From positions 13,297 to 77,296 of the IMG/VR virus record IMGVR_UViG_3300005439_000018: a DNA stretch of 64,000 nucleotides. One strand, 5' to 3'. Source of the stretch: a virus (Duplodnaviria > Caudoviricetes). Positions 18,612 through 37,974 of this stretch are shown piece after piece; the stretch's first letter is position 1; each line of letters starts with the position of its first letter. The notes beneath the pieces are model-generated. The model saw only the letters and a program-made list of their open reading frames with translations. It searched no databases and was not told where the DNA came from. Both the position numbers and the translations under genes were made by a program.

Positions 18612-18662
18612 TTCATTCAGAGGGGCCGACAGGCGGCCCCGCCCGATAGGGAGGCACCCGAG

Positions 18663-22431: not shown

Positions 22432-22474
22432 CGGGTTCCTCCTGTCGCGGGGCCGCCCCTCGGCCCCCGGTTCC

Positions 22475-22503
22475 ATCCTAGCATGGAATTGCCCCCCTGT
22501 CAA
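22475..22503 (-). promoter_or_regulatory. Promoter with operator palindrome
   Basis: TTGACA-N17-TAGGAT on the minus strand. Confidence 0.8.
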
Positions 22504-22531
22504 TATCGACAGGGGGGCGCCCCGCCGCCGG

Positions 22532-22945
22532 TCAGGCGGCCTGCGGGACCCCGGCCAGCAGGTCCCGGCACTGCGGGCAGTACACGGTGCCCTCGGGCAG
22601 GTGCCGCTCCAGCGCGGCCCGGTCCTGTCGGCACTGGGCCCCGACCCGCTTGCCGCACTCGGAGACCCCGTACCCGTTGAACGACATGGCGTGGTGCACC
22701 AGGTTGCGCGGGGTGCACGGCGCCCAGGTGGGCTCGTACCCGCCGACCTGCTGGACCGAGGCCAGCTTCACGCCGACGCAGTAGGTGTAGGCCGGGTCCG
22801 GGTTGATGTCGACCTCGACCAGTGTCCCGTGGGACGGGTGGCCCGTCAGGCGGGTCCCCACGAACCGGCCGCCGTACCAGCGCCCGCCGACCGTCTGGCC
22901 GACGACCCACTGCCCGTATGCTATCTCCGTCACTTCCTCAACCAT
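22532..22945 (-). CDS. Hypothetical Cys/His-containing protein
   Basis: Coupled leftward ORF. Confidence 0.55.
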   Translation of the reverse strand: MVEEVTEIAYGQWVVGQTVGGRWYGGRFVGTRLTGHPSHGTLVEVDINPDPAYTYCVGVKLASVQQVGGYEPTWAPCTPRNLVHHAMSFNGYGVSECGKRVGAQCRQDRAALERHLPEGTVYCPQCRDLLAGVPQAA

Positions 22946-23067
22946 TCCCGAAACGCCTCCGCCCTCTTCCGGTCCCGCCAGCGGGACACCGTGTACCCGA
23001 GCCACATGGCCCCGTAGGCGACCGGACCAGCCAGCGCCACCGTCAGGAGCCTTACCAGAGCGATCAT
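22930..23067 (-). CDS. Small membrane protein
   Basis: GGAGG RBS; hydrophobic helix. Confidence 0.5.
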   Translation of the reverse strand: MIALVRLLTVALAGPVAYGAMWLGYTVSRWRDRKRAEAFREWLRK

Positions 23068-23120
23068 TCCCGACCTCCGTCGGACTGGGGCGGGGGGTGG
23101 TGTGCCCCCCGCCCGCCGGA

Positions 23121-23381
23121 CTAGCCCTTCCTGAGCTTCCGGGCGGCCTCCGCCTGGCTGCGGTAGTGGGTGCGGTCCCACTCGCCGCCGGGCTCCCGGA
23201 AGGTCCAGGAGGGCCGGGAGTTGGGCTGCCCGTTCCCCCTGTCGTCCCCCTGCCCGCCGTTGGCGCGGCGCCCGATCCGACCGGCCCGGACCTCGCCGAT
23301 CTCCTCCCCGGTATCCCCGTCGGTCACCACGTAGGTGTCGTCGGCCCGGCCGGGTATCTTCTTGAACCGGTCCCGGCTCAC
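23121..23381 (-). CDS. Hypothetical protein
   Basis: Leftward ORF in the promoter-driven block. Confidence 0.55.
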   Translation of the reverse strand: MSRDRFKKIPGRADDTYVVTDGDTGEEIGEVRAGRIGRRANGGQGDDRGNGQPNSRPSWTFREPGGEWDRTHYRSQAEAARKLRKG

Positions 23382-23500
23382 CGGCGGTCCAGCCACAGGA
23401 CCAGCGCGACCGATGCGACCACGACGACCGAGAGCCAGACGATCCCCGATGTGCTCATTGCCCCTCCTCGCGGGGCGGCCCCTCCGCCCCTTCAACCCCC

Positions 23501-23529
23501 ATTCTATCAGGGGGTTGTCTCCCTGTCAA
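23501..23529 (-). promoter_or_regulatory. Promoter with operator palindrome
   Basis: TTGACA-N17-TAGAAT. Confidence 0.85.
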
Positions 23530-23737
23530 GCATTTTGGCGACCGGCCACCCCGTGTGCGGGTCGAGCTCGTCGGGGGAGTACCCCTCGTCCAGGTAGTAC
23601 GCGGCCCTCATGTCGTTCATCGACGTGGCCATGTCGGCCAGCTCGGCCGAGTACCGGGGCAGCCCGACCATCCGGCCCGCCAGCATCACCATGCGCAGCC
23701 AGGGTATCGACACGTCGGCCGACGTGCGGTGGCTCAC
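23507..23737 (-). CDS. Hypothetical protein
   Basis: Short ORF whose 3' end contains the next promoter. Confidence 0.4.
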   Translation of the reverse strand: MSHRTSADVSIPWLRMVMLAGRMVGLPRYSAELADMATSMNDMRAAYYLDEGYSPDELDPHTGWPVAKMLDRETTP

Positions 23738-23842
23738 CGGCCCGTCCACCTGTCGTAGTCGTCCTGGCCCTGCCGGAACCCGGCGGCCAGCGCCTGGAAC
23801 ACCGACTCCCACCATATTCTGAACCTCAACATCGTTCCCCTC

Positions 23843-24034
23843 CTAGTAGGTCGTGTTCCAGTCGGTCGCGGCCAGGTCCTCGGCCGTGGGCTCGTACGGG
23901 TGCAGGCACACGGTGTCCGTGAACAGGTACGTCTTGCCCAGGCGGTCACCGATCCAGAAGTCCTCGGCCAGCCACGGGTCGCGCCAGGCGGTCTCGCCCT
24001 CGGCTATCCGCTCGGTAACCTTCGCGTAGTCCAT
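23843..24034 (-). CDS. DUF2829/Tad2-like small protein
   Basis: G..AWR..W...and C-terminal YEPTAEDLAATDW; GGAGG RBS. Confidence 0.5.
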   Translation of the reverse strand: MDYAKVTERIAEGETAWRDPWLAEDFWIGDRLGKTYLFTDTVCLHPYEPTAEDLAATDWNTTY

Positions 24035-24090
24035 CGGGGCCCTCCTATGCTTGGGGGCGGGGGTGGTGTACCCCCGCCCCTGGCGGTGTG

Positions 24091-24330
24091 CTACTGGACG
24101 ATCTTGGTGATCCAGGCAGCCAGCGCCTGGACCTGCGGGTTCTGCTCGTCGGCCCGCGTGACGTGCCGGGCCAGGTGCATCGGGTCGTGGGCGGCCGGGT
24201 TCTGGGCCAGCTCCACCAGGCTCTCGGCCAGCGTGTCGCCGTCGTACCCGTGGGCGCGGGCGACCCGGTGGATCTCCTCGCCCTGGTCTCCGATGTGGCG
24301 GGCGGCTTCCTCGGGGGTGCGTCGTGTCAC
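24091..24330 (-). CDS. Hypothetical protein
   Basis: AAGGAG RBS behind a promoter. Confidence 0.6.
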   Translation of the reverse strand: MTRRTPEEAARHIGDQGEEIHRVARAHGYDGDTLAESLVELAQNPAAHDPMHLARHVTRADEQNPQVQALAAWITKIVQ

Positions 24331-24380
24331 TTCGTGCTCCTTCGGCCGGGGCGGTCCGGGATGGACCGCCTCCAACCTCC

Positions 24381-24409
24381 ATTCTACCACGGACTTGACA
24401 CGCTGTCAA
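24381..24409 (-). promoter_or_regulatory. Promoter with perfect operator palindrome
   Basis: TTGACA-N17-TAGAAT; CTTGACA-CGC-TGTCAAG. Confidence 0.85.
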
Positions 24410-24413
24410 GGGG

Positions 24414-24911
24414 CTAGTTCTGGCACTCCAGGTTGGCCGGGGCCGGGGTCACCACCCTGTCGATCTTGATGATGTTGGGGTACCAGGACATCCACGGGAC
24501 ACGCCACCCCCGGGACACGAACTCGACCACCGACCCCGGGCACAGCTCGTTCGTGAAGTCGCTACTGTTCCGCTTGCCCGCCAGCAGGCTGTCGTTGTTG
24601 GCGAACACCCCGTCGCTGGTGTACACCAGCGTCTGGCACGAGTAGCTCTTGCCGGTGCCGGAGCAGTGGTCGGCCACCCGGTTGATGTGGGCCGTGTGCG
24701 TACTGGTGGACCTCCGGTAGTCGGCGACCCCCCACACGGCCAGGCCCGCCAGGCCCGCCGCCAGCACCAGCCCGCACCCGATCGCGATGTTCCGGGCGCG
24801 GTTCTGGCGCTCCTGCTCCCGGCGCCGGGATTCGGCCAGCCTCTCGCGGGCGGTCGGCGGGGAGACGATCAGCGGGGTGCGGTCGTCGTCGAACCGGTAC
24901 TTGTACTCCAT
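24414..24911 (-). CDS. Single-pass membrane protein (DUF1523-like)
   Basis: TM helix, then VYTSDGVFANNDSLL...NSSD...GWRVPW.SWYPNII. Confidence 0.6.
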   Translation of the reverse strand: MEYKYRFDDDRTPLIVSPPTARERLAESRRREQERQNRARNIAIGCGLVLAAGLAGLAVWGVADYRRSTSTHTAHINRVADHCSGTGKSYSCQTLVYTSDGVFANNDSLLAGKRNSSDFTNELCPGSVVEFVSRGWRVPWMSWYPNIIKIDRVVTPAPANLECQN

Positions 24912-24964
24912 GTTGCCCTCCCTCAGGCGGGGGCGCCGGACTGCCCGGCGCCCCGGATGGTGCG

Positions 24965-25486
24965 TCAGTGCGGGTGGTGGTGCAGCTCGCCGACCGTGAC
25001 CAGGCAGACGGACTGGCCACCGGCCAGGCACCACTCCCCCTGTGCCGTGTGGTGGCGCGGCACCTTGTTCGAGCCCCACCGGATCTTGGTCCGGCGGGTG
25101 CACTTGTGGCAGTCGTACTCGGTCGGCGGCTGGGCGGGGGTGGTGTCCGGCTTCCGGAACTTGTCCAGCAGGTGTGCCGGGGCGCCTTTGGCCGTGTACA
25201 CGCTGATGTGGACGCGGTAGCTCACGCCCTCGCCGGAGTCGTGCCGCTCGTAGATCCACCCCTTCTTCCTCAGTACGTCCTCGGTCTCGTCCGCCAGCTC
25301 GCGCCGGAGCTTGGGCGACCAGACCTCGAACGTCAGGAACGCGTACGGCTTCAGCCCGTAGCGCGCGTTGGCCACCCTGACCCCGCGCGGCCTGTCCCCG
25401 ACCCGGTTCGACCAGCGCGCCACCGGCACGCCGTTCTCCCGCAGCGCCCGGGAGACGTTGCTGCACCACCCGCTGCCGCCCGCCAT
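24965..25486 (-). CDS. Hypothetical protein with a C-terminal zinc ribbon
   Basis: AGGAGG RBS; CHKC...H...C. Confidence 0.6.
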   Translation of the reverse strand: MAGGSGWCSNVSRALRENGVPVARWSNRVGDRPRGVRVANARYGLKPYAFLTFEVWSPKLRRELADETEDVLRKKGWIYERHDSGEGVSYRVHISVYTAKGAPAHLLDKFRKPDTTPAQPPTEYDCHKCTRRTKIRWGSNKVPRHHTAQGEWCLAGGQSVCLVTVGELHHHPH

Positions 25487-25703
25487 GCTGCCACCTCCTG
25501 TCCGGGGGCGGCTCAGACGGCCACCCGCACGGCCCATCCAACCACCGGCTTGCCTCGGAGTCAAGTACGGGAGGCGTGGTGCCGGTGAAACCGCGTGTGG
25601 TAGAGTCGTCTCCATACCGCCGCCGCACCAAGGCTCTGCGGAGCACAGGGCAGCTGGTAAGACTGACCCCGGTGATCGTAACCAGGTACGGCGGCGGAGG
25701 CAA

Positions 25704-25780
25704 AGCGGCGTGGAGCAGTTCGGTAGCTCGCTTGGCTCATAACCAAGAGGTCTCGGGTTCAAATCCCGACGCCGCCACCA
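25704..25780 (+). tRNA. tRNA-Met(CAT), initiator-like
   Basis: Cloverleaf with an A1/C72 mismatch, A11-U24, anticodon stem CTTGG/CCAAG with loop CTCATAA, T loop TTCAAAT, A-CCA. Confidence 0.92.
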
Positions 25781-25975
25781 CCCACCGACGATGTTGGTAA
25801 GCTCGACCGCTCCCCCTGGGCGCCCAGGGACCGGAGCGCGCGGCCTAAGACACCGGGTCGCGGGTGCTGCGGGCCGCCGGTCCCCGAATTCCGGCCAGTG
25901 CGGCCCCCTCAGTGCCCTCAGGCAGACGAGGGGGCCGCACTTGTGTCTGCGGGCGGCCGGGCGTAGCCTGGTCGC

Positions 25976-26266
25976 ATGGACACCGCCGACAGCCGCGCCC
26001 TGGACGTGTACGAGGGCGGTACTGTGAACTCCGGCCCGCACTACGGCAACCAGCCCAACGTGAAGCCCGCCGACGACAGCACGGGCGTACCCGCTGAGGG
26101 CAGCCGCGTGCGGCACCTCCGGTCCGGTGAGACCGGCACCGTAACCGGCGTCCACGTCCACGGCCATTCGGGCGAACGGATGCCCACCGTACGCTGGGAC
26201 AGCCAGCCCGCCACCGGGTTCACCTCCGACCAGGGCTACTCGCTGGACAGCCTCACAAACCCGTAG
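25976..26266 (+). CDS. Hypothetical protein with an SH3-like repeat domain
   Basis: RVRHLRSGETGTVTG...PTVRWDS. Confidence 0.6.
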   Translation: MDTADSRALDVYEGGTVNSGPHYGNQPNVKPADDSTGVPAEGSRVRHLRSGETGTVTGVHVHGHSGERMPTVRWDSQPATGFTSDQGYSLDSLTNP

Positions 26267-26449
26267 GTAGACTGATCCTCTCGTCCGACAAAGCCGTGTC
26301 CGGGCTACCGGGGAGGGCGACACAGGTCGACCTCGCAGCTGCCTCCGGTCCTGGGCCGACCCAGGCTCGACGGAGCCAGGACGAGCGCGGGCGGTCGTGC
26401 CGCCAAGTCGGGACCCACGGTGGCCGAAAGCACGTGGGACCCGGCGCCC

Positions 26450-26525
26450 TGGCCCGTAGCTCAGTAGGCAGAGCGCCGCACTGTTAATGCGGACGTCGCA
26501 GGTTCGACCCCTGCCGGGCCAGCCA
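26450..26525 (+). tRNA. tRNA-Asn(GTT)
   Basis: TGGCCCG/CGGGCCA, GCTC/GAGC, CCGCA-CTGTTAA-TGCGG, GCAGG-TTCGACC-CCTGC, G-CCA. Confidence 0.95.
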
Positions 26526-26935
26526 GCAAAACCCCTGTGGTACCGTGGTATCACGCGCCGCAGGGACCACCCGAGGGACGACCCCACGAAGGGTGAGCCG
26601 CTTAGTCAGCGGATACCGCTGCGGTTAAGAGCACCAGGGAAGACCGTGCGCACGGGCCGGGCATGGTACCGGCGGACCTGGTGTGGAGCTGGACGGCGGT
26701 TGCGGATTGGGGGTGTCGCCCCCGTGAGTCGACCGCCGAGCCAGCCACCCCCGAGCCGGTGTCCGTAAATGCACCGTGGCGGGGTTTGCACAGCGGCGGG
26801 AACAACCCGGCACCGGCCTAAGGTGGATTGGGCAGGGGCAGCCTCAACCCGTAAGCACCCGTGTGAAGCCGTACCTTCTTAGGGCGAGGGACGAAGCTGG
26901 TGCCGGGCCCGCCGCACGCATGTTAGTCTGGGCGC

Positions 26936-27217
26936 ATGACTTCCGTACACGCCACGCCGCCGGTCGCGGGTACGCCGCCTGTGTACCCGTTCGCCGAGTG
27001 GCTTGACGGCCAGCGGTGGACGCTGAACCGGGGGCGCGACTTCTGGGGCCCGCCCCGCGACTTCGCCCGCCGCATCCAGGCCAGCGCCCGAGCCCGCCGC
27101 CTGGTCCTATTCATGCGCTACGAGCCGGACGGCCAATACATCGAGCTGTGCGCCACCCCCCGCCCCTCGGCCGAGTCCGCCGTCCCCGTGGTAAAGATCG
27201 AGGACGCCGATGCCTAG
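26936..27217 (+). CDS. Hypothetical protein
   Basis: YPFAEWLDG..W.L..G.DF motif seen in actinophage proteins. Confidence 0.65.
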   Translation: MTSVHATPPVAGTPPVYPFAEWLDGQRWTLNRGRDFWGPPRDFARRIQASARARRLVLFMRYEPDGQYIELCATPRPSAESAVPVVKIEDADA

Positions 27218-27458
27218 GATGACCGCCGCCCAGCGGTACCTGCACCGCAAGTATCGGCAGGCCGTGCGCGCCCGCCAGCAGGCCGAGCAGCTGGAGCAGC
27301 GCAGGCTGCTGGACGAGCGGTACCGACAGATCGGTGACCACCCCAACGACTGGGTGCTGACCGTCGAGAGGCACAACGTCGCTCCCAAGACCACTCTCGG
27401 ACGCGTCGTCGAAGAGCGCGGACGGCCGGGCGGGGGTGGTGTAGATGGCCACGGGTGA
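27210..27458 (+). CDS. Hypothetical protein
   Basis: Coupled ORF. Confidence 0.5.
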   Translation: MPRMTAAQRYLHRKYRQAVRARQQAEQLEQRRLLDERYRQIGDHPNDWVLTVERHNVAPKTTLGRVVEERGRPGGGGVDGHG

Positions 27459-27996
27459 GCCGCGCACCCCGGCGGCCATCGCCCGGTTCGAGCGGGAGAA
27501 GGCTAACCAGAGGAAGCTCCAGCGCGAAGTGCTGGAGCTGCGCAAGGCCGGATACTCCTACTACCGGATCGCCCAGGTCCAGGGATGCTCGACCCGCACC
27601 GCCCTGAACCGGTACAAGCGCGCGATCGCCCGGGACATCCCGGAGGAGGAGATCATCGAGGCGCGCAAGCTGGAGCTGGACCGGTACGACGAGATCACCG
27701 TCATGAACATGGCGCTGCTGGCCCGCGCGTTCGAGGCCGGGGACGTCGAGACGTTCTGCAAGATCCAGGACCGTATCAACGGCGTGCACGACCGGCGCCG
27801 GATGATGATCCCGATCCAGGTAAACCCCAAACTGGTCATCGAGCAGGAGACCACGCTGCGGACGGCCCAGGACAGCGAGCTCGCCGACCTGCTGGGCAAG
27901 GCTGCCAACGACGTCGAGGACAAGGTCCGGTGGCTCACCGAGCAGTACGGCGGGGTTGGGCCCGACCCCATCGTGCCCGGTGAACCGATGGGGTAG
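27445..27996 (+). CDS. Probable terminase small subunit (HTH)
   Basis: LELRKAGYSY..IA...G.S HTH, then ELDRYD helical region; upstream of the packaging genes. Confidence 0.7.
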   Translation: MATGEPRTPAAIARFEREKANQRKLQREVLELRKAGYSYYRIAQVQGCSTRTALNRYKRAIARDIPEEEIIEARKLELDRYDEITVMNMALLARAFEAGDVETFCKIQDRINGVHDRRRMMIPIQVNPKLVIEQETTLRTAQDSELADLLGKAANDVEDKVRWLTEQYGGVGPDPIVPGEPMG

Positions 27997-28006
27997 GGTA
28001 GGCCGC

Positions 28007-28282
28007 ATGACCGAGGCCGACCAGGAGCTGACCGACGCGGTGGACAGGTATCTGCACCGCGCCGGTCTGATCTTCGACGATTCAGACCAGACCGGACTGA
28101 CACTGACCGATGTGATGTTGGTGACCGTCCGGTGCGGATTCGACCAGCTGGGCAGCAAGTCCCAGACGTCAGTCATCACCCCTACAGACTCGTCCGTCCC
28201 CATCCTCATTGGCATGGCGAGGTACGCCTCGATCCGGTTCGAGAGCATGGCGGAGGGGTCGTTCCCGAAAGAGGGCGGCTGA
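28007..28282 (+). CDS. Hypothetical protein
   Basis: ORF in a coupled block. Confidence 0.55.
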   Translation: MTEADQELTDAVDRYLHRAGLIFDDSDQTGLTLTDVMLVTVRCGFDQLGSKSQTSVITPTDSSVPILIGMARYASIRFESMAEGSFPKEGG

Positions 28283-28668
28283 TGACCGCCACCACGGCCG
28301 CCCGGCTGGACCCCGAGGTGCCGCTGTTCAGATACCGCACCGGCCAGGTGTGGGAGCAGACCCGCATGCAGCTGGCCAGCCCCCGGCCCGACGGCGCCGT
28401 TGCCTACTACCAGGACAGCCTATCCCGCCTGCACCCGGTCTCCTGGCGCCCCCGGTTCGACGACGAGTCGGCCCGCGCCCTGTGCCAGTACGTCCGGGCG
28501 CTGGCCGACAAGGCCGGGCTGGAGGTCGTCGAGGGCCCGTTCCTCCAGGTGCTGGAGGACGACGGTGCGACCCCGCCCGGCTACGCCATGTTGCGCGCCA
28601 TCGTCTGGGTCGAGGAATACGACCTGGTGGTGCCGGTCGACGGGGGGGCGGCCGATGGCCCAGCATGA
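28282..28668 (+). CDS. Hypothetical protein
   Basis: TGATG coupling. Confidence 0.6.
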   Translation: MTATTAARLDPEVPLFRYRTGQVWEQTRMQLASPRPDGAVAYYQDSLSRLHPVSWRPRFDDESARALCQYVRALADKAGLEVVEGPFLQVLEDDGATPPGYAMLRAIVWVEEYDLVVPVDGGAADGPA

Positions 28669-28870
28669 GGGCGTGCTCCGCCAGTTCGCCATCTCGGCCG
28701 ACGGAGACGTCGACCCCGATACCGGCCACATCCAGGTGTGGGCCGTGCTCACCCACCTGCCGTGCGGCGCCCCTCTGTGGGGCGACGGCGGCGACCAGCT
28801 CGTCATGCGGGCCGACCAGCTGTTCCAGTTGATGTATGACCACAGGTGCAAGGAGACCACTAATGGCTGA
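28655..28870 (+). CDS. Hypothetical protein
   Basis: Overlapping ORF. Confidence 0.5.
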   Translation: MAQHEGVLRQFAISADGDVDPDTGHIQVWAVLTHLPCGAPLWGDGGDQLVMRADQLFQLMYDHRCKETTNG

Positions 28871-29078
28871 GCGTCTGACCGCACCGGCCGCGCACCTGGT
28901 CACCGTCGAATGTGCGGAGGGAGGGGGTGGTGTACTGGTCGCGCACGCGCTGTGCAACGACCCGGCCGTGTTCGTGCCGAACCGCCCCAACAGCCGTGCC
29001 GTGCTGGCCATCGACATCATCCAGGCCGTGCTCGGCCACCGCTGCCCGCCCGGCCAGGGCGACGACCCCGAGAGATGA
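28863..29078 (+). CDS. Hypothetical protein
   Basis: AAGGAG RBS. Confidence 0.5.
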   Translation: MAERLTAPAAHLVTVECAEGGGGVLVAHALCNDPAVFVPNRPNSRAVLAIDIIQAVLGHRCPPGQGDDPER

Positions 29079-29082
29079 CCCG

Positions 29083-30272: not shown

Positions 30273-30401
30273 ACGCCCGCGACTTGGGTCAGGGCCGACT
30301 GCGGCGCAGCCTGGACCCCGGCGCCCCCACACCACCCTCCCCCTATTCGCCGTTTCCGCCGGGCGTCGAATGGGGGAGGGTGGTATACGGGCCCCGCCGA
30401 C

Positions 30402-30890: not shown

Positions 30891-30891
30891 C

Positions 30892-31104: not shown

Positions 31105-31519
31105 GAGTCCAGAGGAGAGGCGCCGGAAGGCCCGCGACCGCCAGCGAGATAAGCGGTCTACCCCGGAAGGCCGCCGTGCTTGGAATGATCGACATAATGA
31201 GCGCACTCGTGAGGCACGCCGCAAGTTGCGCCTGTTGGTTCTGGATTACTATGGTGGGGCGTGTGCGTGCTGCGGCGAGAGTCGAGAGCCGTTTCTGGTC
31301 ATCGACCACATGGACGGTGGCGGAAACGACCACCGCGAGGAGATCAAGCCGTCTGCCACGCACGGCAGGGGCGGCGGTGGAGCGCACATGTATAAGTGGC
31401 TCGTGGCGAACGACTTCCCGCCCGGGTTTCAAGTGCTGTGCGCAAACTGCAACATGGCCAAGGATCGTCCGGGCGGATGCCCGCATACCTGGAAGGAGGA
31501 CCAACACCACTATGACTGA
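31097..31519 (+). CDS. Free-standing HNH homing endonuclease
   Basis: YGGACACCGE...IDHMDGGG...LCANCNMAK; atypical codon usage. Confidence 0.88.
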   Translation: MSESPEERRRKARDRQRDKRSTPEGRRAWNDRHNERTREARRKLRLLVLDYYGGACACCGESREPFLVIDHMDGGGNDHREEIKPSATHGRGGGGAHMYKWLVANDFPPGFQVLCANCNMAKDRPGGCPHTWKEDQHHYD

Positions 31520-31708
31520 CAAGGGCAAGAGCGGCGAAGGGCACAAGAGCCCCGGGCCGATGCACTCGAAGGCGCAGTGGCGACAATAGGCTTCCTGTTC
31601 GCCACCAAGAAGCCGTTCGCCCACAAGTGGGCCGAACAGGTCGTGGCCGAGCGCGGGCCCAAGACCGGCTACCGCAGCCTTCCCGAGCGCAAGGGCGCAC
31701 ACAGGTGA
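31512..31708 (+). pseudogene. Small basic phage protein split by an 8-nt insertion containing TAG (pseudogene or recoded)
   Basis: MTDK...SKAQWR, then CAATAGGC, then FLFATKKPFAHKWA...LPERK in another frame. The joined product matches the SKAQxRxxFA...WA...LPER phage family pattern. Confidence 0.6.
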
Positions 31709-32244
31709 CCCTCCCACTGTCCGGATCCATCGGCCTAGTCAACGTCAAGGGCCTGGTCGGCGACCTCATAACCGTCGGCGAGCGCCTCGACGGCAGCTCC
31801 GCCGCCGCCGCAGCGTACGACCATGCTTTCGTGCTGGTGTCCGACAACGCCCCCGAGCGCGGGGGATCCTCCGTCATCCAGGCCGAGCCTGGGGGCGCGA
31901 AGCTGTCCCCGTTGTCCCAGTACAGCGGCCGGGAGGTCTTGTGGCTCCCGTGCCCCCCGGAGAACTCCCGGGCCGTCGTACAGGCCGCCGTCTCCTACAC
32001 GGGCATCCCCTACGCCTACGCGGACTATTTCGCGATCGCCGCCCACCGCCTCGGGTTCAACCCCCGCCGACTGATAGCCCAGATCACCGTGTCCCGGCAC
32101 ATGATCTGCAGTCAGCTGGCGACCGCCGCAGCCACCAAGGGCGACTGGGTCCTGTTCCCGAGCAACCCGTGGACCGGCTACATCACCCCGGCGATGCTGG
32201 CTGCCCTCGACGTGCCGGGCAAGTTCACCGAGGTGCTGCCGTGA
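31705..32244 (+). CDS. Permuted papain-like (YiiX/YaeF, NlpC/P60-like) hydrolase
   Basis: YDHAFV...IQAEPGGA...GIPYAY...MICSQLA, with His before Cys. Confidence 0.75.
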   Translation: MTLPLSGSIGLVNVKGLVGDLITVGERLDGSSAAAAAYDHAFVLVSDNAPERGGSSVIQAEPGGAKLSPLSQYSGREVLWLPCPPENSRAVVQAAVSYTGIPYAYADYFAIAAHRLGFNPRRLIAQITVSRHMICSQLATAAATKGDWVLFPSNPWTGYITPAMLAALDVPGKFTEVLP

Positions 32245-33941
32245 CCGGGCAGGGGGGTGGTGTGGGCGCTGCTGGCGCGGCCCCCGGGCCGGGGGACCGG
32301 CCTGCCGACCGGCTGCACTACCTGGAGGGCCAGACCTCCGAGACCTTTGACCCGCTGGAGTACATCAAGAGCAAGAACCTGGTATGGAAGGACCAGAGCC
32401 TGCTGGCCAGCCCCGACCCCGAGGGCACCCTGTGGCGCACGGCCCAGACCAAGCTCGACCCGATGCTGTTCGCCCTGGTGTACCTGCGCCACCACCTGCG
32501 GGCTCCGGCCACCCGGAACCAGATCACGTTCTGTGACGCCCACCTGGATTGGTGCCGGGAGGCGCTGGGGTGGGTGGTGCCCCCCACCGGCCCCCGGGAG
32601 AACCGGGATGTCTACGTGGCCCCCCGCGAGCTGGGCAAGTCCACGTGGTTCTTTCTGGTCCTGCCCCTGTGGGCCGCCGCTCACGGCCACAAGCGGTTCA
32701 TCGCGGCATTCGCCGACGCCGGTACCCAGGCCGAGATGCACCTGTCGACGTTCAAGAACGAGCTCGAGAACAACACGCTGCTACAGCGGGACTTCCCGGA
32801 CCTGTGCGAACCGGCGACCCGGTACCGTGGCGCCACCCAGTCCGACACCAAGGGCCTGACAATCCGCAAGAGCGGGTTCGTGTTCGGCGCGCGCGGCGCC
32901 GACTCCAAGACCCTGGGCATGAAGGTCGGCGAACGCCGCCCCGACATGCTGATCCTGGACGACATCGAGCCCGGTGAGGACCAGTACAGCGAATACCAGG
33001 TCGCGGGGCGCCTCACCACCATCACCGACGTCATCTTCCCGCTGTCCGAATACGCACAGGTGGTGCTGGCGGGCACCGTGACCCTGCCCGGGTCGATCGT
33101 CCACCAGCTGGTCAAGTCCGTGACCGAGCCGGAGGAGGACCACCCGGAGTGGATCGAAGAGCAGAACATGCGGGTGCACTACTACCCGCCGATCATTCAG
33201 AACGAGGACGGCACCGAGCGCTCGATCTGGCCCGCCAAATGGCCCATCGAGTACCTCAACGCCATCCGGCACACCCGCAGCTTCCTCAAGAACTTCGCCA
33301 ACAGCCCGCTGGGTCTGGACGGCGACTACTGGACCAAGGACGACTTCGTCTACGGCGAGCTCACCGGAAAGACCCGGGTGATGCTGTCGATCGACCCGGC
33401 CGACAAGACCAAGAAGACCAGCGACTGGACCGGGATGGCCGTCGTGGGCTGGACACCACCCCTCGCCCCGGCCGACCCGCGCAAGAAGGCGATCGACGTC
33501 GGCGATCTCCAGGCCGCGATCAACGGCGGTCTGGGTATGTGCGAGGTGATGTACGCCCGTGCTGTCAAGCTGGTCGGCGAGAACCTGCGGGCCGAGGTGC
33601 TGCGCGTCCTGGAGATGTTCCCGGAGATCGGGCTGGTGCTTATCGAGGTCAACAAGGGCGGCGAGCACTGGCTCGACATCCTGCACCACCTGCCCTGCAA
33701 GATCCAGATGATCGACCAGGTTACCGACAAGCGGACCCGGGCGTCCCACGCGCTGGCGCACTACCAGCGGGGGAGGGTGGTGCACAGCAAGCGCCACGGC
33801 ACGGCCGAGGAGCAGATGGTCAGCTTCCCGCGCGGGCCTAACGACGACCTGGTGGACGCCGTCGGCTCGGCGGTCACCCGCCTGCTCAAGCGGAAGGCCC
33901 CGACGGGGATCCGGGGCCAGAACGTGGGCACATACGCGTGA
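32241..33941 (+). CDS. Terminase large subunit
   Basis: APRELGKST Walker A, LILDDIE Walker B, SIDPA nuclease, NDDLVDA. Confidence 0.93.
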   Translation: MTGQGGGVGAAGAAPGPGDRPADRLHYLEGQTSETFDPLEYIKSKNLVWKDQSLLASPDPEGTLWRTAQTKLDPMLFALVYLRHHLRAPATRNQITFCDAHLDWCREALGWVVPPTGPRENRDVYVAPRELGKSTWFFLVLPLWAAAHGHKRFIAAFADAGTQAEMHLSTFKNELENNTLLQRDFPDLCEPATRYRGATQSDTKGLTIRKSGFVFGARGADSKTLGMKVGERRPDMLILDDIEPGEDQYSEYQVAGRLTTITDVIFPLSEYAQVVLAGTVTLPGSIVHQLVKSVTEPEEDHPEWIEEQNMRVHYYPPIIQNEDGTERSIWPAKWPIEYLNAIRHTRSFLKNFANSPLGLDGDYWTKDDFVYGELTGKTRVMLSIDPADKTKKTSDWTGMAVVGWTPPLAPADPRKKAIDVGDLQAAINGGLGMCEVMYARAVKLVGENLRAEVLRVLEMFPEIGLVLIEVNKGGEHWLDILHHLPCKIQMIDQVTDKRTRASHALAHYQRGRVVHSKRHGTAEEQMVSFPRGPNDDLVDAVGSAVTRLLKRKAPTGIRGQNVGTYA

Positions 33942-33963
33942 GGCCCGGCCGGTCGGCCGGGCC
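33942..33963. terminator. Hairpin between convergent genes
   Basis: GGCCCGGCC-GGTC-GGCCGGGCC. Confidence 0.5.
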
Positions 33964-33968
33964 CCGGG

Positions 33969-34241
33969 TCAGTTCACCCCGTGGTACCTCATCGATTTGG
34001 CGATGTTGTCCAGGGTGTTCTCGTCGCTCAGGTCCTGCTGCCCGGAAGTGTAGCCCTGGTAGTTGGGCAGGTATTTCTTGACGTTGGGCTTCTCTCCGCC
34101 GGTGACCCACAGCCCCCACACCTCGGAGTCCGCCACGTAGTGGATGCGGTACAGGCCCCACCATCCTTTGGCTACCTTGACCCCGCATACCAGGCCCCCC
34201 AGCACCCGGTCGTCCGTGTACATGTTGATGGAGATCTTCAT
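33969..34241 (-). CDS. Hypothetical protein
   Basis: AGGAGG RBS. Confidence 0.6.
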   Translation of the reverse strand: MKISINMYTDDRVLGGLVCGVKVAKGWWGLYRIHYVADSEVWGLWVTGGEKPNVKKYLPNYQGYTSGQQDLSDENTLDNIAKSMRYHGVN

Positions 34242-34399
34242 CTCTGGCTGTCCTCCTGTTCCCAGATCGTGGAGTAGTGCTTGCAGTGGGCGTGGGTGCC
34301 CGGGGTCGGGCAGTCCGGGTGGTTGCACGGCACCTGGTGGTCCGGCAGGCTCGACTCGAGGTGCTCGGTCAGGCAGTGGTAGCAGAATATCCTCTTCAC
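34238..34399 (-). CDS. Small Cys/His-rich protein
   Basis: MKRIFCYHC...CNHPDC...HAHCKH; GGAGG RBS; coupled. Confidence 0.55.
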   Translation of the reverse strand: MKRIFCYHCLTEHLESSLPDHQVPCNHPDCPTPGTHAHCKHYSTIWEQEDSQR

Positions 34400-34456
34400 G
34401 GCGGCTCCTCCGGGAGACAGGGTGGGGGCGGCCGACCGGCCGCCCCCGGTGCTGCG

Positions 34457-34645
34457 TCAGACCGTGCGGACCGCCTTCGACAGCGCACCCAGCAGCTGGT
34501 CCAGAACCAGGTCGCAGAACAGCCGTTCGTCGTCGTCCTCCGCGCCGTGGCTGTACGAGCTGTAGGCCCGCTCGGCCTGCTCCGCCAGCACCCGCAGCTC
34601 GGCGGTCGGGACGTTCAGCACGATCTGCGTGGTCTCGTTGTCCAT
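34457..34645 (-). CDS. Hypothetical protein
   Basis: AAGGAG RBS behind a promoter. Confidence 0.6.
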   Translation of the reverse strand: MDNETTQIVLNVPTAELRVLAEQAERAYSSYSHGAEDDDERLFCDLVLDQLLGALSKAVRTV

Positions 34646-34693
34646 TTCGGGCTCCTTCAGTTCGGGGAGCGCCCCTCGCTCCCTGTTAAGACC

Positions 34694-34722
34694 ATTCTAC
34701 CATGGGGTTGCCTCCCTGTCAA
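34694..34722 (-). promoter_or_regulatory. Promoter with operator palindrome
   Basis: TTGACA-N17-TAGAAT. Confidence 0.85.
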
Positions 34723-34782
34723 TACCCCCGACACGGGGGCGGCCCGTCCCCGGGCTGGGGACGGGCCGCCGGACGGTCCCGG

Positions 34783-35112
34783 TCAGCAGTTGGTCTCGAC
34801 CGTGATCCGGAACGACTCCCCGCCGACCCCGGCCGTGTCCTGGATCCCGCCCTCGGTCACCAGCGCCACCAGCCGGTCGATGTTGAGCGGGATCAGCCAC
34901 TCGCCGGGGGCGTCGGCCTGCGACCAGGCGTCGTTAACCAGGGTGGTCCACGGGGTGTCGGACATCGCCGTCTCGCCCAGCCCCAGGAACTCCTGGACCA
35001 CCTTGCACGCCAGGTCCCAGTCGGTGACCGGCTGGAACTCGCCGCCGTTGTTGACCTCGATCTTGGCCTGCCACCCCAGCGCCAGCTCGCGACCGCCCGC
35101 GTTGTGCGTCAT
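34783..35112 (-). CDS. Hypothetical protein
   Basis: AAGGAG RBS behind a promoter. Confidence 0.65.
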   Translation of the reverse strand: MTHNAGGRELALGWQAKIEVNNGGEFQPVTDWDLACKVVQEFLGLGETAMSDTPWTTLVNDAWSQADAPGEWLIPLNIDRLVALVTEGGIQDTAGVGGESFRITVETNC

Positions 35113-35164
35113 CTCGGTTCTCCTTCTTCCGAGGGCCGGGCCCCTCCCGGCCCCTCTGAATAAA

Positions 35165-35193
35165 ATTCTATCATAGGTTTGTCTCGCTGTCAA
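35165..35193 (-). promoter_or_regulatory. Promoter with operator palindrome
   Basis: TTGACA-N17-TAGAAT. Confidence 0.85.
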
Positions 35194-35245
35194 GTTAACA
35201 TGCCGATGCCCCCGACCTGTCCGGCCGGGGGCATCGGAGGCGGGA

Positions 35246-35794
35246 CTACTGGGGCCAGGACCCGGTGTTCAGCCAGGTCGCCAGCAGCCACGCGGCGCTC
35301 ATCCCCGTGGGGTTGTCGACGCCCGCGAACACCTCGCGGTCCCGCAGGTACACCGGGCCGTCGTGGTCGCGGGCCGCCTGCACCAGCTGCTGGACCTCCT
35401 CGCTGCCGACCACCCAGGACATGACCTGGTACCGGTAGGCGGGCAGGTAGATCGCCCGCCGGGCCGCGCCGACGTCCTCGATCAGGTCGGCGGCCGGACC
35501 GGCCCAGGCTCCGCGCGGCACCCGGCCGTGGCCCCGGCGCCAGTCGCCCGCCATCGCCAGCTCGTCCGGCCCGCTGACCGGCCCGTGGACCTTGGTGCCC
35601 TGCCACAGCGCGGCGACGCTGACCGCCGTGCAGCCGTGGTACCGGTGGCTGTACTTCCGGTTGCTCGGGTTGGCCCAGATCCACTGGAAGCTGTCGCCCG
35701 CCAGGTCGGTGTCGTCGCCCGTGCAGATCGCCACGTTCCACGCGTTGTCGCCGGGCATGTCGTCCTTGATGCCCGCCGCGATGAACTCGCCCAT
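35246..35794 (-). CDS. DUF6939-like protein
   Basis: SVAALWQGTKV and ARRAIYLPAYRY...VYLRD motifs. Confidence 0.55.
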   Translation of the reverse strand: MGEFIAAGIKDDMPGDNAWNVAICTGDDTDLAGDSFQWIWANPSNRKYSHRYHGCTAVSVAALWQGTKVHGPVSGPDELAMAGDWRRGHGRVPRGAWAGPAADLIEDVGAARRAIYLPAYRYQVMSWVVGSEEVQQLVQAARDHDGPVYLRDREVFAGVDNPTGMSAAWLLATWLNTGSWPQ

Positions 35795-35840
35795 CTCTAC
35801 CACCTTCGACCGGGGGCCGCAGTCGGCCCCGATTACCAAA

Positions 35841-35869
35841 ATCCTATCACATCCTTGTCCCGCTGTCAA
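35841..35869 (-). promoter_or_regulatory. Promoter with operator palindrome
   Basis: TTGACA-N17-TAGGAT. Confidence 0.8.
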
Positions 35870-35914
35870 TCCCCCTGAGCGGGGCGCCCGCTTGGTCGGC
35901 GGGCGCCCCGGCGG

Positions 35915-36175
35915 TCACGCGCCCGGGTGTCCCTCGGGCCGCGCGGCCGGGTGCGTCGCGGCGATCCCGATCTCGTCGGCGAGCCACGTCCGCATCTCCG
36001 GGTCGGCGACGTGGTGCTTGAGCGCGTCGGCGATCCGGCACGCCTCGGCCTCGGTGTTCCCGCCCGCGCGGAGCGCGTCGATGGCGGCGGTGATCTGCTC
36101 GGTCGGGATCCCGTACCCCTCGGCGATGTTTCGCTCGATCGCCGTGGCCTGGCGGGCGGGGGTGGTGTTCGGCAT
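35915..36175 (-). CDS. Hypothetical protein
   Basis: AGGAG RBS. Confidence 0.6.
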   Translation of the reverse strand: MPNTTPARQATAIERNIAEGYGIPTEQITAAIDALRAGGNTEAEACRIADALKHHVADPEMRTWLADEIGIAATHPAARPEGHPGA

Positions 36176-36251
36176 CTCTGTCTCCTCTGGTTCGGGCGGC
36201 CCCTCCGCCCTGTTGGGACAAGTCAACCATCCCCTTGTCTCGCTGTCAAGA

Positions 36252-36620
36252 TCAGCGCAGACTGCGCACCATGATGTCGGCGATCTCGCGCAGGTCGTCG
36301 GACGTCTGGCTGTCCTTCGACCCCGCGTGCGCCAGCAGCATCCCCATCGCTAGCGCGGCCTGGTACTTGGTCAGCCGGAACTCCACCGTGTCGTCGACCG
36401 GCTTGTTGAACCCGGCCTGGATCACGGCCAGGTCGGCCCCGAGCCACTTGACCCACAGCCGCAGGTCGGACAGCTTGGGCGACACTCGGCCGCTCTCGTA
36501 GCTGCTGAGCATGGACTGGCTGAACCCGATCTCGCGGGCGGCGTCCACCTGCTTGGTGCTGCCCCGCATGTCCCGCAGGACGGATATCAGCGGGTCGATC
36601 TCGTGCTGCTGTTCAGCCAC
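36252..36620 (-). CDS. XRE-family HTH regulator
   Basis: LRDMR...QVDAAREIGFSQSMLSSYESGRVSP.L. Confidence 0.85.
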   Translation of the reverse strand: MAEQQHEIDPLISVLRDMRGSTKQVDAAREIGFSQSMLSSYESGRVSPKLSDLRLWVKWLGADLAVIQAGFNKPVDDTVEFRLTKYQAALAMGMLLAHAGSKDSQTSDDLREIADIMVRSLR

Positions 36621-36738
36621 CTTGGCTCCTTGGTCGGCCGGATACCCCCGGCGTGGTCTGTGGGGACATCCCACCACGCGGGTTTCCAGACAGACAAGCT
36701 CCCGCCGGTGTCCGGCGGGAGCTGGCAGGGCGCGTGGG

Positions 36739-36912
36739 TCAGTCCCACTCGTACATCTCCGTCTTGTTGTTGCGGTAGTAGGTACCCCAGTGCCTGCCCG
36801 GGTGCTTGCCGGTCGGCCCGACCATCACTGTGCACACCAGCGGAACCCCCGGAACCGCCGCTGTGTTGACGCTGCCGCACTCTGTCTCGGGCCTGTGGCC
36901 GTTGACCTTCAT
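36739..36912 (-). CDS. Small Cys/His protein
   Basis: GGAGG RBS; C...C...H.G.HW. Confidence 0.5.
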   Translation of the reverse strand: MKVNGHRPETECGSVNTAAVPGVPLVCTVMVGPTGKHPGRHWGTYYRNNKTEMYEWD

Positions 36913-36965
36913 TTCCCCTCCCAAAAACGGGCCGGGCCGCCCCGTGTGGGGCGGCCCGGTCAGCA

Positions 36966-37316
36966 CTACTTGCGGATGGTGACCCCCGGGTCGTCCGGTC
37001 CCATCGACCAGATCTCATTCCCCGGCTCGGTGATATCCTCGATCTCCGCCCAGGTCGCCCGGATGTCGACGACCTGGATCCGCGCCCCGGGGTCCGGGTC
37101 GTTGTACCCGATCGCGTACCCCTGCCGGTCGCCGACCGGGTGGGCCTCGATCCACTCGCGGAGCTGGGGGACCCCGACCGGGGTGGCCAGCTCGCCCTCG
37201 GTGCTGGTCGGGGCGACGAACCCGTCCTCTATCGGCTCCCCGTCCGCGCCGACCAGGGCGCAGAACTCCATCCGCATCCCCTCGTCGATCCGCTCCGCGA
37301 TCTTTTCGGTGTTCAT
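36966..37316 (-). CDS. Hypothetical acidic protein
   Basis: Follows a promoter and RBS. Confidence 0.6.
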   Translation of the reverse strand: MNTEKIAERIDEGMRMEFCALVGADGEPIEDGFVAPTSTEGELATPVGVPQLREWIEAHPVGDRQGYAIGYNDPDPGARIQVVDIRATWAEIEDITEPGNEIWSMGPDDPGVTIRK

Positions 37317-37361
37317 CCTGGTTCCCTTCCCGGGGCGGCCCCTCCGCCCCCTCTGAATAAA

Positions 37362-37391
37362 ATTCTATCATAGGGGTTGCCTATTTGTCAA
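37362..37391 (-). promoter_or_regulatory. Promoter with operator palindrome
   Basis: TTGACA-N18-TAGAAT. Confidence 0.85.
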
Positions 37392-37454
37392 TATCCCCGA
37401 CACGAGCCCGCCCGGCCGCAGGGTGCGCGGCCGGGCGGGGGGTGGTGTAGCGGG

Positions 37455-37583
37455 TCAGCGGGCCTTGGGGTGCGCCCGGCTGGTGTGGGCGTCCAGCGCG
37501 GCCTGCGCGCCCGCCTGGGTGTTCATCTTCGCCTTGAACGTGCAGTGCGGGCAGCTCAGCTCGACGTCGCGGGTCTCGGCCAT
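37455..37583 (-). CDS. C2H2-like zinc-finger microprotein
   Basis: CPHC...AH...H; AAGGAG RBS. Confidence 0.55.
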   Translation of the reverse strand: MAETRDVELSCPHCTFKAKMNTQAGAQAALDAHTSRAHPKAR

Positions 37584-37642
37584 CTCGGTTCTCCTTCGGT
37601 GGGTGGGGGCCGGACCCCGGGCGGGGTCCGGCCGGTGGTGCG

Positions 37643-37927
37643 TCAGACCCGGCGGCAGCGCTGCTGGTGGACCGCCAGCGCCTCGGCGGCGGCCATCCGG
37701 GTCCCGTACCAGTTGGTCGTGAACCCGCAGACGCACTGGGCGTGGAACATCGAGCTGACCTGGGTGGGCGACCCGATCACCCCGTCCGGGCTGACCTCGA
37801 CGTACTGCGTGGTCAGCCCGGACCGGTTGGCCTCGGACTGCGCGGCGTCGGCCGCCGCCCAGCTGTTGCCGTGCTCCGAGACGAACACCCCGCGCCCGTT
37901 CCGGACCTGCCACTTCGTGTCGGCCAT
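37643..37927 (-). CDS. Hypothetical protein
   Basis: GGAGG RBS; CVCG...HQQRC. Confidence 0.6.
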   Translation of the reverse strand: MADTKWQVRNGRGVFVSEHGNSWAAADAAQSEANRSGLTTQYVEVSPDGVIGSPTQVSSMFHAQCVCGFTTNWYGTRMAAAEALAVHQQRCRRV

Positions 37928-37974
37928 CTCTGGCCTCCCTTCCTGACGGGGCGCCCCTCGCCCCTTCAACCTCC

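Follow-up and report, generated by a model that had tools for sequence, protein, structure and literature searches.

Putative 5' leader stem-loops in compact promoter cassettes of a soil actinophage

Seven short hairpins that share the loop AGGGG lie between predicted promoters and the start codons of small genes in a 64,000-nt stretch of viral DNA (Caudoviricetes; IMG/VR record IMGVR_UViG_3300005439_000018), hereafter called the window, which comprises bases 13297-77296 of a phage genome of 77,296 bp. Here we propose, with about even confidence, that the hairpin is the 5' stem-loop of a portable expression cassette resembling the promoter early stem-loop (PeSL) cassettes, and that it protects and insulates the mRNA of the small gene behind it. 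The proposal starts from what can be read directly in the genomes, namely the anatomy of the cassette, its excess over chance, the covariation of its stems and the conservation of a structure, not a sequence, across related phages. Positions given below are those of the window unless another sequence is named.

Results

All seven perfect hairpins with an AGGGG loop lie on the minus strand and have stems of 6-8 bp (Table 1). No further AGGGG hairpin with a stem of at least 4 bp occurs in the window or in the whole 77,296-bp genome, the plus strand holding none at all. Among the 65 perfect hairpins of the window that combine a stem of at least 6 bp with a 5-nt loop, AGGGG recurs seven times and every other loop at most twice. 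A first-pass annotation of the window had listed the seven hairpins with their strand, positions and stems, all of which we find in the sequence as described. It had further put them between a promoter and a ribosome-binding site, which is equally correct, since each of the seven has a -10 element upstream and a Shine-Dalgarno (SD) sequence with an ATG downstream. Its distance of 10-20 nt from the -10 element needs correction, as the stems begin 7-11 nt past it. The hairpins end 13-20 nt ahead of the ATG, the SD sequences are of the GGAGG type, and the gap between hairpin and SD sequence amounts to 2-8 nt.

Aligned on the loop, the seven hairpins vary on both sides in five of eight pair columns, with the closing G-C pair fixed, and their covariation score was matched by none of 500 shuffles. 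The picture of stems that change compensatorily around a fixed loop, drawn already in the first-pass annotation, thus holds, all five loop columns being invariant. In the flanks, 4 of 50 columns are invariant, and those four are all stem pairs. Sequence identity among AGGGG cassettes, compared to that between AGGGG and other cassettes, is 0.36 vs 0.27 in the initial transcribed region, 0.40 vs 0.40 behind the hairpin and 0.60 vs 0.54 in the spacer, and the initial transcribed region falls into three sub-families that do not follow the loop types. Because the flanks of two AGGGG cassettes resemble each other no more than they resemble those of other cassettes, the copies are old. Judged by these seven copies, the AGGGG loop and its closing pair are kept by selection, in this genome only. 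As a separate observation, the pentamer CCCCT/AGGGG is depleted over the whole window (159 occurrences on both strands vs 265 ± 14 in dinucleotide-preserving shuffles), which contrasts with its fixation in the seven loops; codon structure may account for the depletion.

The predicted promoters are near the consensus of the primary sigma factor, consisting of TTGACA, a spacer of 17-18 nt that ends in TGn, and TAGAAT or TAGGAT. Between 21 and 39 kb there are 10 promoter-like sites, compared to 1.1 ± 1.1 in shuffled sequences. With a relaxed promoter definition, a perfect hairpin of at least 6 bp stands behind 11 of the 13 promoter-like sites of the phage genome, while by chance 6.5% of random 45-nt genome windows have such a hairpin starting within 16 nt. 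Three promoters with other loops had been reported before, and the loops ACAGG, ATCCC and ACTG are indeed present; the hairpin with ACAGG is not leftward but lies on the plus strand behind the rightward promoter P18582, and a fourth case (GTCGT, 62859-62877, minus strand) has to be added. The stem GGGGCCG/CGGCCCC is found with four different loops, so that loops vary on a fixed stem, besides stems on a fixed loop.

Related sequences were collected by a protein-guided search of IMG/VR, which yielded 16 loci with portals 62-82% identical to that of the phage; five large contigs were taken whole. Relatives carry working labels such as G001 or L122 in the following. A hairpin stands behind promoter-like sites in G001 (4 of 8 sites), G002 (7/7), L135 (3/3), L122 (2/4), L127 (1/1) and L128 (1/1), and a promoter-independent census adds cassettes in L125 (loop AGTGG), L126, L127 and L130. 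The loops of the relatives include GCTGG, AACCG, GACC, ACGGA, GGTCG, GAGGT, TCC, GTGGG, ACCAG and ACAGA, and in all 16 loci an AGGGG hairpin is absent from the 10 kb on either side of the portal gene. Five gene families, grouped by the protein encoded downstream, have cassettes in at least two distinct genomes; the hairpin is kept in all five, and stem and loop both differ. Orthologous cassettes, for example, have GGGCCGGG-AGGGG in the phage, GGGCGG-AACCG in L130 and GGGGGCGG-ACCAG in L135. Across 20 pentaloop hairpins (the seven with AGGGG and 13 from the phage and its relatives), eight of eight pair columns vary on both sides and 92.5% of the cells pair, a pairing covariation that none of 500 shuffles equalled. 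The stem begins 7-12 nt past the -10 element in 24 of 27 cassettes. Since the hairpin occurs before orthologous genes with differing stem and loop, the conserved feature is the structure at that place and not the sequence. No such promoters or cassettes occur in the more distant relatives G003, G004 and G005. The terminase-portal gap of G003 (10830-11090, minus strand) has repeats of TTGACAAATAGTCAC beside a tRNA gene and no leader hairpins, and thus has a different regulatory design in the corresponding place.

Wider scans were made for the AGGGG cassette itself. Two pattern scans of IMG/VR, with promoter plus AGGGG and with promoter core plus GGG, gave stems in 0/119 and 2/119, respectively, among the matches listed, which are unrelated, mostly low-G+C DNA (median 32% G+C in the scan with promoter core plus GGG). 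The exact 19-nt hairpin has one match in IMG/VR, an unrelated sequence of 81% G+C without a promoter. A pattern of the AGGGG cassette specified at 23 bases gave one chance match each in IMG/VR and in the JGI metagenomes, both stemless, and none in the GTDB genomes. As these searches found no AGGGG cassette outside this genome, the AGGGG loop can be studied only in its seven paralogues.

A transcription start can be predicted from a signature that the cassettes share. Among 26 distinct cassettes, 24 have a pyrimidine at position 6 past the -10 element, and a purine occupies position 8 in 19 of 21. This Y-R signature would place the start 7-8 nt past the -10 element, i.e. 0-4 nt before the stem. 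Geometry and conservation, as far as sequences can tell, speak for an inclusion of the hairpin in the transcript. When the 11 predicted leaders were folded, the hairpin was the minimum-energy structure in 11/11, and the SD sequence remained unpaired in 11/11.

Overlapping contig ends show that the phage genome to which the cassettes belong, of 70% G+C, is complete and was assembled as a circle. Its genes include those for a large terminase, an SPP1-type portal, tail proteins, a family A DNA polymerase, a helicase and an endolysin. The closest matches of the portal are portals from Streptomyces phages and their satellites (34-40% identity). The phage is a siphovirus-like soil actinophage and not a T4-type myovirus. 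The only public sequencing run listed for it is a DNA rhizosphere metagenome, and a megablast search with the window from 30 to 38 kb against GenBank phages gave no match. The relative G001 (77.5 kb) is syntenic with the phage, with 70-80% nucleotide identity in the core genes. Both small-gene clusters are unalignable between the two, and the G001 homologue of the 62-aa ORFan of the terminase-portal cluster (34457..34645) sits in the other hypervariable cluster.

Most of the hairpin promoters serve small genes of two leftward clusters (22.0-24.4 kb and 34.0-38.0 kb), and two promoters are located elsewhere (Table 1). The cluster at 34.0-38.0 kb is wedged between the rightward terminase and portal genes. 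For nine of the ten first genes driven there is no PHROG family; a Pfam hit or weak hit was obtained for one of these nine and for the tenth gene, one of the two being DUF6939. These small, fast-changing accessory genes are probably early genes. Between most cassette promoters and the gene before them lies a longer G+C hairpin (10-15 bp), which follows that gene directly, and the long intergenic hairpins of the phage are mostly without U-tracts. Terminator-like hairpin, strong promoter, leader hairpin, SD sequence and small gene thus form a repeated unit.

Table 1. Hairpins, promoters, first genes and upstream terminator-position hairpins of the cassettes in the window
Feature	Position	Strand	Sequence or description	Promoter or remark
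Leader hairpin	37948..37964	-	GGGGCG-AGGGG-CGCCCC	P38003
Leader hairpin	37332..37350	-	GGGGCGG-AGGGG-CCGCCCC	P37391
Leader hairpin	36194..36210	-	GGGCGG-AGGGG-CCGCCC	P36249
Leader hairpin	35133..35153	-	GGGCCGGG-AGGGG-CCCGGCCC	P35193
Leader hairpin	34665..34683	-	GGGAGCG-AGGGG-CGCTCCC	P34722
Leader hairpin	23472..23490	-	GGGGCGG-AGGGG-CCGCCCC	P23529
Leader hairpin	22449..22467	-	GGGGCCG-AGGGG-CGGCCCC	P22503
Same-position hairpin	18622..18640	+	GGGGCCG-ACAGG-CGGCCCC	P18582 (rightward)
Same-position hairpin	24350..24370	-	GGCGGTCC-ATCCC-GGACCGCC	P24409
Same-position hairpin	35813..35830	-	GGGGCCG-ACTG-CGGCCCC	P35869
Same-position hairpin	62859..62877	-	GGGGCCG-GTCGT-CGGCCCC	P62915
Promoter P38003	37975..38003	-	TTGACA-N17 (with TGn)-TAGAAT	
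Promoter P37391	37362..37391	-	TTGACA-N18-TAGAAT	
Promoter P36249	36221..36249	-	TTGACA-N17-TTGACT	
Promoter P35869	35841..35869	-	TTGACA-N17-TAGGAT	
Promoter P35193	35165..35193	-	TTGACA-N17-TAGAAT	
Promoter P34722	34694..34722	-	TTGACA-N17-TAGAAT	
Promoter P24409	24381..24409	-	TTGACA-N17-TAGAAT	
Promoter P23529	23501..23529	-	TTGACA-N17-TAGAAT	
Promoter P22503	22475..22503	-	TTGACA-N17-TAGGAT	-35 = right arm of 11-bp palindrome (22491-22518)
Promoter P18582	18582..18611	+	TTGACA-N18-TAGAAT	
Promoter P62915	62887..62915	-	TTGCCA-N17-TAGGGT	
Gene	37643..37927	-	94 aa, no family	P38003
Gene	36966..37316	-	116 aa, no family	First behind P37391; two more genes before next promoter, including XRE-type helix-turn-helix, 36252-36677
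Gene	35915..36175	-	86 aa, no family	P36249
Gene	35246..35794	-	182 aa, DUF6939	P35869
Gene	34783..35112	-	109 aa, no family; homologues in related phages	P35193
Gene	34457..34645	-	62 aa	P34722
Gene	24091..24330	-	79 aa, no family	P24409
Open reading frame	23378..23458	-	26-aa hydrophobic peptide, gene call uncertain	First behind P23529
Gene	22000..22431	-	143 aa, no family	P22503
Gene	18663..19310	+	215 aa, Ala/Lys-rich tail; homologues in G001, G002	P18582
Gene	62484..62843	-	119 aa	P62915
Terminator-position hairpin	34738..34770	-	14-bp GC hairpin, for preceding gene	Just upstream of P34722
Terminator-position hairpin	35203..35237	-	12-bp GC hairpin	Just upstream of P35193
Terminator-position hairpin	35880..35910	-	12-bp GC hairpin	Just upstream of P35869
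Terminator-position hairpin	37407..37439	-	13-bp GC hairpin	Just upstream of P37391

A second kind of inverted repeat was found at the promoters. At 9 of 32 promoters of the lineage, a palindrome with at least 9 nt of perfect complementarity overlaps the -35 element, compared to 2.4% of non-cognate arm pairings. The arms measure 9-13 bp, the right one consisting of the -35 hexamer and the start of the spacer, and they differ between cassettes yet always match each other; examples are located at window 22491-22518, at 7004, 70002, 70886 and 72880 in G001, and at 34319, 36851, 49388 and 50714 in G002. These palindromes look like composite terminator/promoter hairpins. An inverted repeat flanking the -10 element, a by-eye impression, was rejected, the cognate arms matching over 3.66 nt and non-cognate ones over 3.59 nt.

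Further observations concern the promoter sequence and its possible control. Of the 11 hairpin cassettes in the phage genome, 10 have TAGAAT or TAGGAT as -10 element, with the exception located at window 36221-36226. In G001, G002, L122 and L135 the -10 element of the cassettes is mostly TTGACT, TTGGAT or TTGAAT and has a T in place of the usually essential A at position 2; the sigma factor may differ there, or the extended TGn may compensate. A half-palindrome, TTGAC-N5-G(N)CAA, is conserved across the -35 element and the adjoining 9 nt of spacer in all cassette promoters, e.g. at 24395-24409 (TTGACAGCGTGTCAA); a dimeric repressor might use it as an operator that overlaps the -35 element. An XRE-type helix-turn-helix protein (36252-36677) is encoded within one of the hairpin operons.

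As to the proteins encoded, a motif C-x-C-G-[FW] ... H was noted by eye near the C-terminus of the ORFans at 37643-37927 and 22000-22431 and of the first gene of the G001 cluster (7700-7795), all on the minus strand; it may represent a small module that binds zinc and is shared by these early proteins. Outside the clusters, the genome encodes a PurZ-like adenylosuccinate synthetase homologue (15494-16603, plus strand), which matches a PHROG annotated as 2-aminoadenine (PurZ-type) synthetase, and a fused deoxyribosyltransferase-like/dUTPase protein (17421-18344). The phage DNA may carry 2-aminoadenine instead of adenine, and the melting of promoters would then change. Right behind the portal gene, two large proteins are encoded that have an ADP-ribosyltransferase domain at the C-terminus (40001-41497 and 41521-44040, plus strand; Alt-like by PHROGs); they are probably enzymes that are packaged in the virion and modify the host. 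Directly downstream of a tRNA-Asp-like gene at 59-136 lies the gene of a Ro60/TROVE protein with a vWA domain (258-1943, plus strand). Bacterial Ro60 partners (Y-like RNAs) have tRNA-like modules, and the tRNA-Asp-like call may belong to such a Y-like Ro60-partner RNA.

Discussion

In the cassette that we propose, the G+C-rich terminator-like hairpin of the preceding gene, which sometimes overlaps the -35 element, would be followed by a promoter of the host type close to consensus (TTGACA and TAGAAT, 17-18 nt apart, with TGn in the spacer). Transcription would start about 7-8 nt past the -10 element, so that the transcript would begin with a tail of 0-4 nt and a hairpin of 6-8 bp, G first and C last, followed by an unpaired SD sequence and the start codon. 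The paired 5' end would deny single-stranded entry to an RppH-type pyrophosphohydrolase, to the 5' sensor of RNase E and to the exonuclease RNase J, and the hairpin would keep the leader from pairing with each new coding sequence. Through 5' protection and insulation of the leader, any gene behind the cassette would be expressed strongly and predictably. We thus infer a start site in front of the stem, a hairpin that acts as RNA and an effect on stability. Stability, one of the three roles that the first-pass annotation had put forward, is taken here as the best explanation. Precedents are known: according to PMC3997798, 5'-terminal stem-loops stabilise mRNA in E. coli, the Bacillus aprE leader requires one, and RppH requires at least 2 unpaired 5' nucleotides. 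For vacA, a stem-loop at +4 to +30 is described as prolonging the half-life through its structure, based on disrupting and restoring mutants (PMC4843948).

Several points weigh against this proposal. The covariation alignments took in only rows pre-chosen as perfect stems; the unbiased measure is the hairpin frequency at promoter-like sites. By that measure the hairpin is not obligatory, as no perfect one is present at 2 of 13 sites in the phage and at 4 of 8 in G001. The start site is a predicted one, and a start within or behind the hairpin would be compatible with the data. With z-scores of -0.7 to -2.6, the folding of the leaders stands out modestly, as shuffled sequences of 70% G+C fold well too. 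The stems are almost purely G-C; pairs that would be G.U in the sense RNA lengthen 6 of 32 stems and A.C pairs (G.U in the antisense RNA) 10 of 32, so that base-pair chemistry separates neither RNA from DNA nor the two strands. A pure stabiliser would leave the invariance of G-AGGGG-C in seven cassettes with 36-40% identical flanks unexplained. The stem-loop of PeSL cassettes has been demonstrated as a terminator and not as a stabiliser, according to PMC2839356.

The invariant loop is the starting point of a tentative and rather unlikely alternative, in which G-AGGGG-C would be the operator of a sequence-specific reader, i.e. an RNA-binding protein (of phage or host) or an RNA loop complementary to it, that jointly represses or boosts the translation or stability of seven early mRNAs. 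Such a function can be a layer added to the structural hairpin. In its favor, the five loop columns and the closing pair are invariant while the flanks are not, the copies are old, and a factor bound 2-8 nt from the SD sequence would block the 30S subunit. The orthologous cassettes with AACCG (L130) and ACCAG (L135) furthermore suggest that AGGGG was imposed in this lineage. The loop would then serve as the address label of a small post-transcriptional regulon, by which a phage- or host-specific reader might switch seven unrelated early mRNAs together, for example in a shutoff of early proteins by blocking the adjacent ribosome-binding site, with the structural hairpin of the lineage as scaffold.

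The reader could be an unrecognised RNA-binding protein or a CCCCU-bearing 13-nt loop at genome position 4948-4988 (plus strand), 8.3 kb upstream of the window start. The latter belongs to a perfect 14-bp terminator hairpin directly behind a gene, and its loop TCCGCCCCTCGCT shows GCCCCTC, the exact complement of the invariant G-AGGGG-C, and is complementary to as many as 11 nt of the P34722 hairpin. Just behind it follow a T-arm like that of a tRNA and a stretch that ends in CCA. Such a complementary loop has a chance probability of ~0.04 (rough count), however, and a loop of 5 nt is small for a kissing contact. Comparative support is absent in G001 and G002, where the loops of the equivalent hairpins are unrelated and do not match their own leaders. 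Among 31 small proteins, no RNA-binding Pfam domain was found even at an E-value of 0.5, and Ro60 is not known to read hairpin loops. The first-pass view of a protein-recognised RNA element thus finds partial support: the constraint on the loop holds in this genome, but no reader was found, and the relatives keep the hairpin with unrelated loops, which indicates that the basic function does not need AGGGG. In the phage itself, 4 of 11 hairpins have other loops. Ribosome docking on the loop is weakly supported, as AGGGG is rarely used as SD sequence here. Two further ideas on the loop were set aside: an SD-like reading is weak (AGGGG in the SD region of 2/64 genes vs 12 for AGGAG and 9 for GGAGG), and a G-quadruplex, looked for by eye, was dropped as four G-runs are present in only some leaders.

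A role of the hairpin in terminating or attenuating transcription, as in PeSL, or in regulated antitermination, is considered improbable. RNA polymerase that comes in from upstream cassettes, and perhaps also from the hairpin's own promoter, would then be halted or damped, which would keep the tandem small genes separate in transcription; if the site were of a nut- or put-like kind, modified polymerase would pass. The PeSL stem-loop of T4-type phages lowered downstream reporter expression like a strong terminator, also in the subclass placed directly behind the -10 element (PMC2839356), and the tandem genes of the phage with one promoter each would fit this role. No T-run follows any of the seven AGGGG hairpins (0/7); the long intergenic hairpins of the phage mostly lack U-tracts too, so the missing tract need not mean that termination is absent. 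Most cassettes, however, already have the separate, longer hairpin (10-15 bp) in terminator position upstream, and termination at +4 to +22 would also cut short the transcripts of the very cassette that holds the hairpin; for these two reasons attenuation is less likely than stabilisation. Against antitermination, which the first-pass annotation had listed among the possible roles, stand the lack of any conserved boxA-like linear element beside the hairpin and the fact that each small gene has its own promoter. The loops are not kept among related phages, nor is there a match to an Rfam family: in the window only 3 tRNAs reach the gathering score, and permissive scans of both clusters returned only matches with E-values of at least 0.27, far below gathering.

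It is highly improbable that the element acts at the DNA level, where the G+C palindrome with its fixed 7-bp centre would be a protein-binding site by the promoter or a crossover point for cassette shuffling. The stems are perfect Watson-Crick without a G.U bias, as would be expected for DNA palindromes. Crossovers of PeSL recombination are reported to map within or beside the stem-loop (PMC2839356). The hypervariable clusters, moreover, differ wholly between the syntenic genomes, one ORFan having moved between clusters. A dimeric protein, however, could not read arms whose sequence varies, and arms of 6-8 bp are short for cruciform extrusion. The tight spacing to the -10 element and the SD sequence, together with the unpaired SD sequence, suits a feature of the transcript better, and a crossover in the loop between different stems would produce mismatched chimeras. 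That hairpin and loop have no function of their own and are passengers of a promoter cassette spread by duplication is hardly credible: the cassettes are clearly paralogous, as they have the core of the promoter in common and their initial transcribed regions form three sub-families, but their flanks have decayed to 36-40% identity while pairing was kept by two-sided changes and the loop stayed untouched, and orthologous cassettes elsewhere keep the hairpin with new sequence.

Comparison with known systems

The boxB hairpins of lambda-type nut sites, which are read by N proteins, have a short G+C stem and a purine-rich pentaloop and are located in the nascent leader near early promoters. The AGGGG hairpin shares the short G+C stem, the purine-rich pentaloop near early promoters and the fixed loop on a stem that may vary. 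It differs in that no conserved linear boxA-like element is adjacent (4/50 flank columns invariant, all of them stem pairs), in the number of sites (eleven vs two), in that every gene has its own promoter, and in a loop that is different in every relative. With regard to an N-like protein, the small proteins gave no family match, and arginine-rich peptides have no Pfam model. On these features, the AGGGG hairpin does not appear to be a nut site.

Start-associated sequences (SAS) of Cluster K mycobacteriophages are described as a repeated 13-bp linear motif at the SD sequence of some non-structural genes, with a lineage-specific consensus (PMC3203893). Like these, the element described here is a repeated motif beside the ribosome-binding site of a subset of genes in an actinophage. 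The inverted repeats of the extended SAS (ESAS), in the same account, do not keep RNA pairing and are thought to be bound by DNA-binding proteins (PMC3203893), whereas here pairing is kept through changes on both sides. The SAS motif GGGATAGGAGCCC, located 3-7 bp before the start codon, has 1 match at up to 2 mismatches in our data vs 2.86 expected, and this match is not at a gene start. The leader hairpin is hence no Cluster K SAS or ESAS.

With the 5' stabilisers (ompA, papA, the aprE leader, vacA +4 to +30) the leader hairpin has in common a short, stable stem-loop a few nucleotides from the 5' end, which is predicted in our case. As in those leaders, structure counts over sequence (8/8 pair columns vary; 5/5 orthologous groups) and the ribosome-binding site is accessible (11/11 leaders). 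The known stabilisers, in contrast, belong to single host genes with measured half-lives, while here a repeated module precedes about 11 predicted phage transcripts, and seven copies have a fixed loop that a pure stabiliser would not need.

The closest likeness in architecture is to the PeSL cassettes of T4-type phages, in which strong sigma70-like promoters are combined with polyG/polyC stem-loops in five positions, including ones overlapping the -35 element and just past the -10 element (PMC2839356), and which sit before ORFans in hyperplastic regions (PMC2839356; PMC4122927). The phage cassette likewise contains a strong, though predicted, sigma70-like promoter (TTGACA-N17/18-TGn-TAGAAT, 11 sites) and stem-loops with a G-tract followed by a C-tract (leader hairpins at 11/13 sites, -35 palindromes at 9/32 promoters). 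SD sequence and start codon follow, the genes are small ORFans, and the regions differ between close phages, both clusters being unalignable with G001. PeSL cassettes recombine with each other, with cassette-flanked indels and mini-circles as marks; in the phage, the one ORFan relocated between clusters relative to G001 may be an indirect sign of such exchange. Differences lie in the virus, here a siphovirus-like actinophage of 70% G+C with an SPP1-type portal and not a T4-type myovirus, and in the arrangement of the hairpins, as a separate upstream hairpin is usually found in terminator position and the promoter-distal one has a fixed place where the mRNA is predicted to begin. An invariant loop is common to seven copies here, and none appears in the passages of the PeSL accounts on which we draw (PMC2839356; PMC4122927). 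In our literature search, which left subscription journals and supplements outside, no description of such cassettes in actinophages was found. As the virus group differs, we regard the phage cassette as an analogue of PeSL and not as a strict member.

The modular early-gene cassette of the PeSL type, known so far from T4-type phages of Gram-negatives, would thus have an analogue in high-G+C actinophages, with the stem-loop fixed at the predicted 5' end of the mRNA. With this analogue, early accessory genes and hypervariable regions of uncultured actinophages can be located by a simple rule. To engineering of the Streptomyces type it offers natural, compact parts of promoter plus 5' untranslated region (~75 bp) that evolution has tested before many genes. 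That the loop is invariant in one genome and free in the relatives moreover represents a clean natural experiment, which could separate a structural role of a leader hairpin from one in which the sequence is read.

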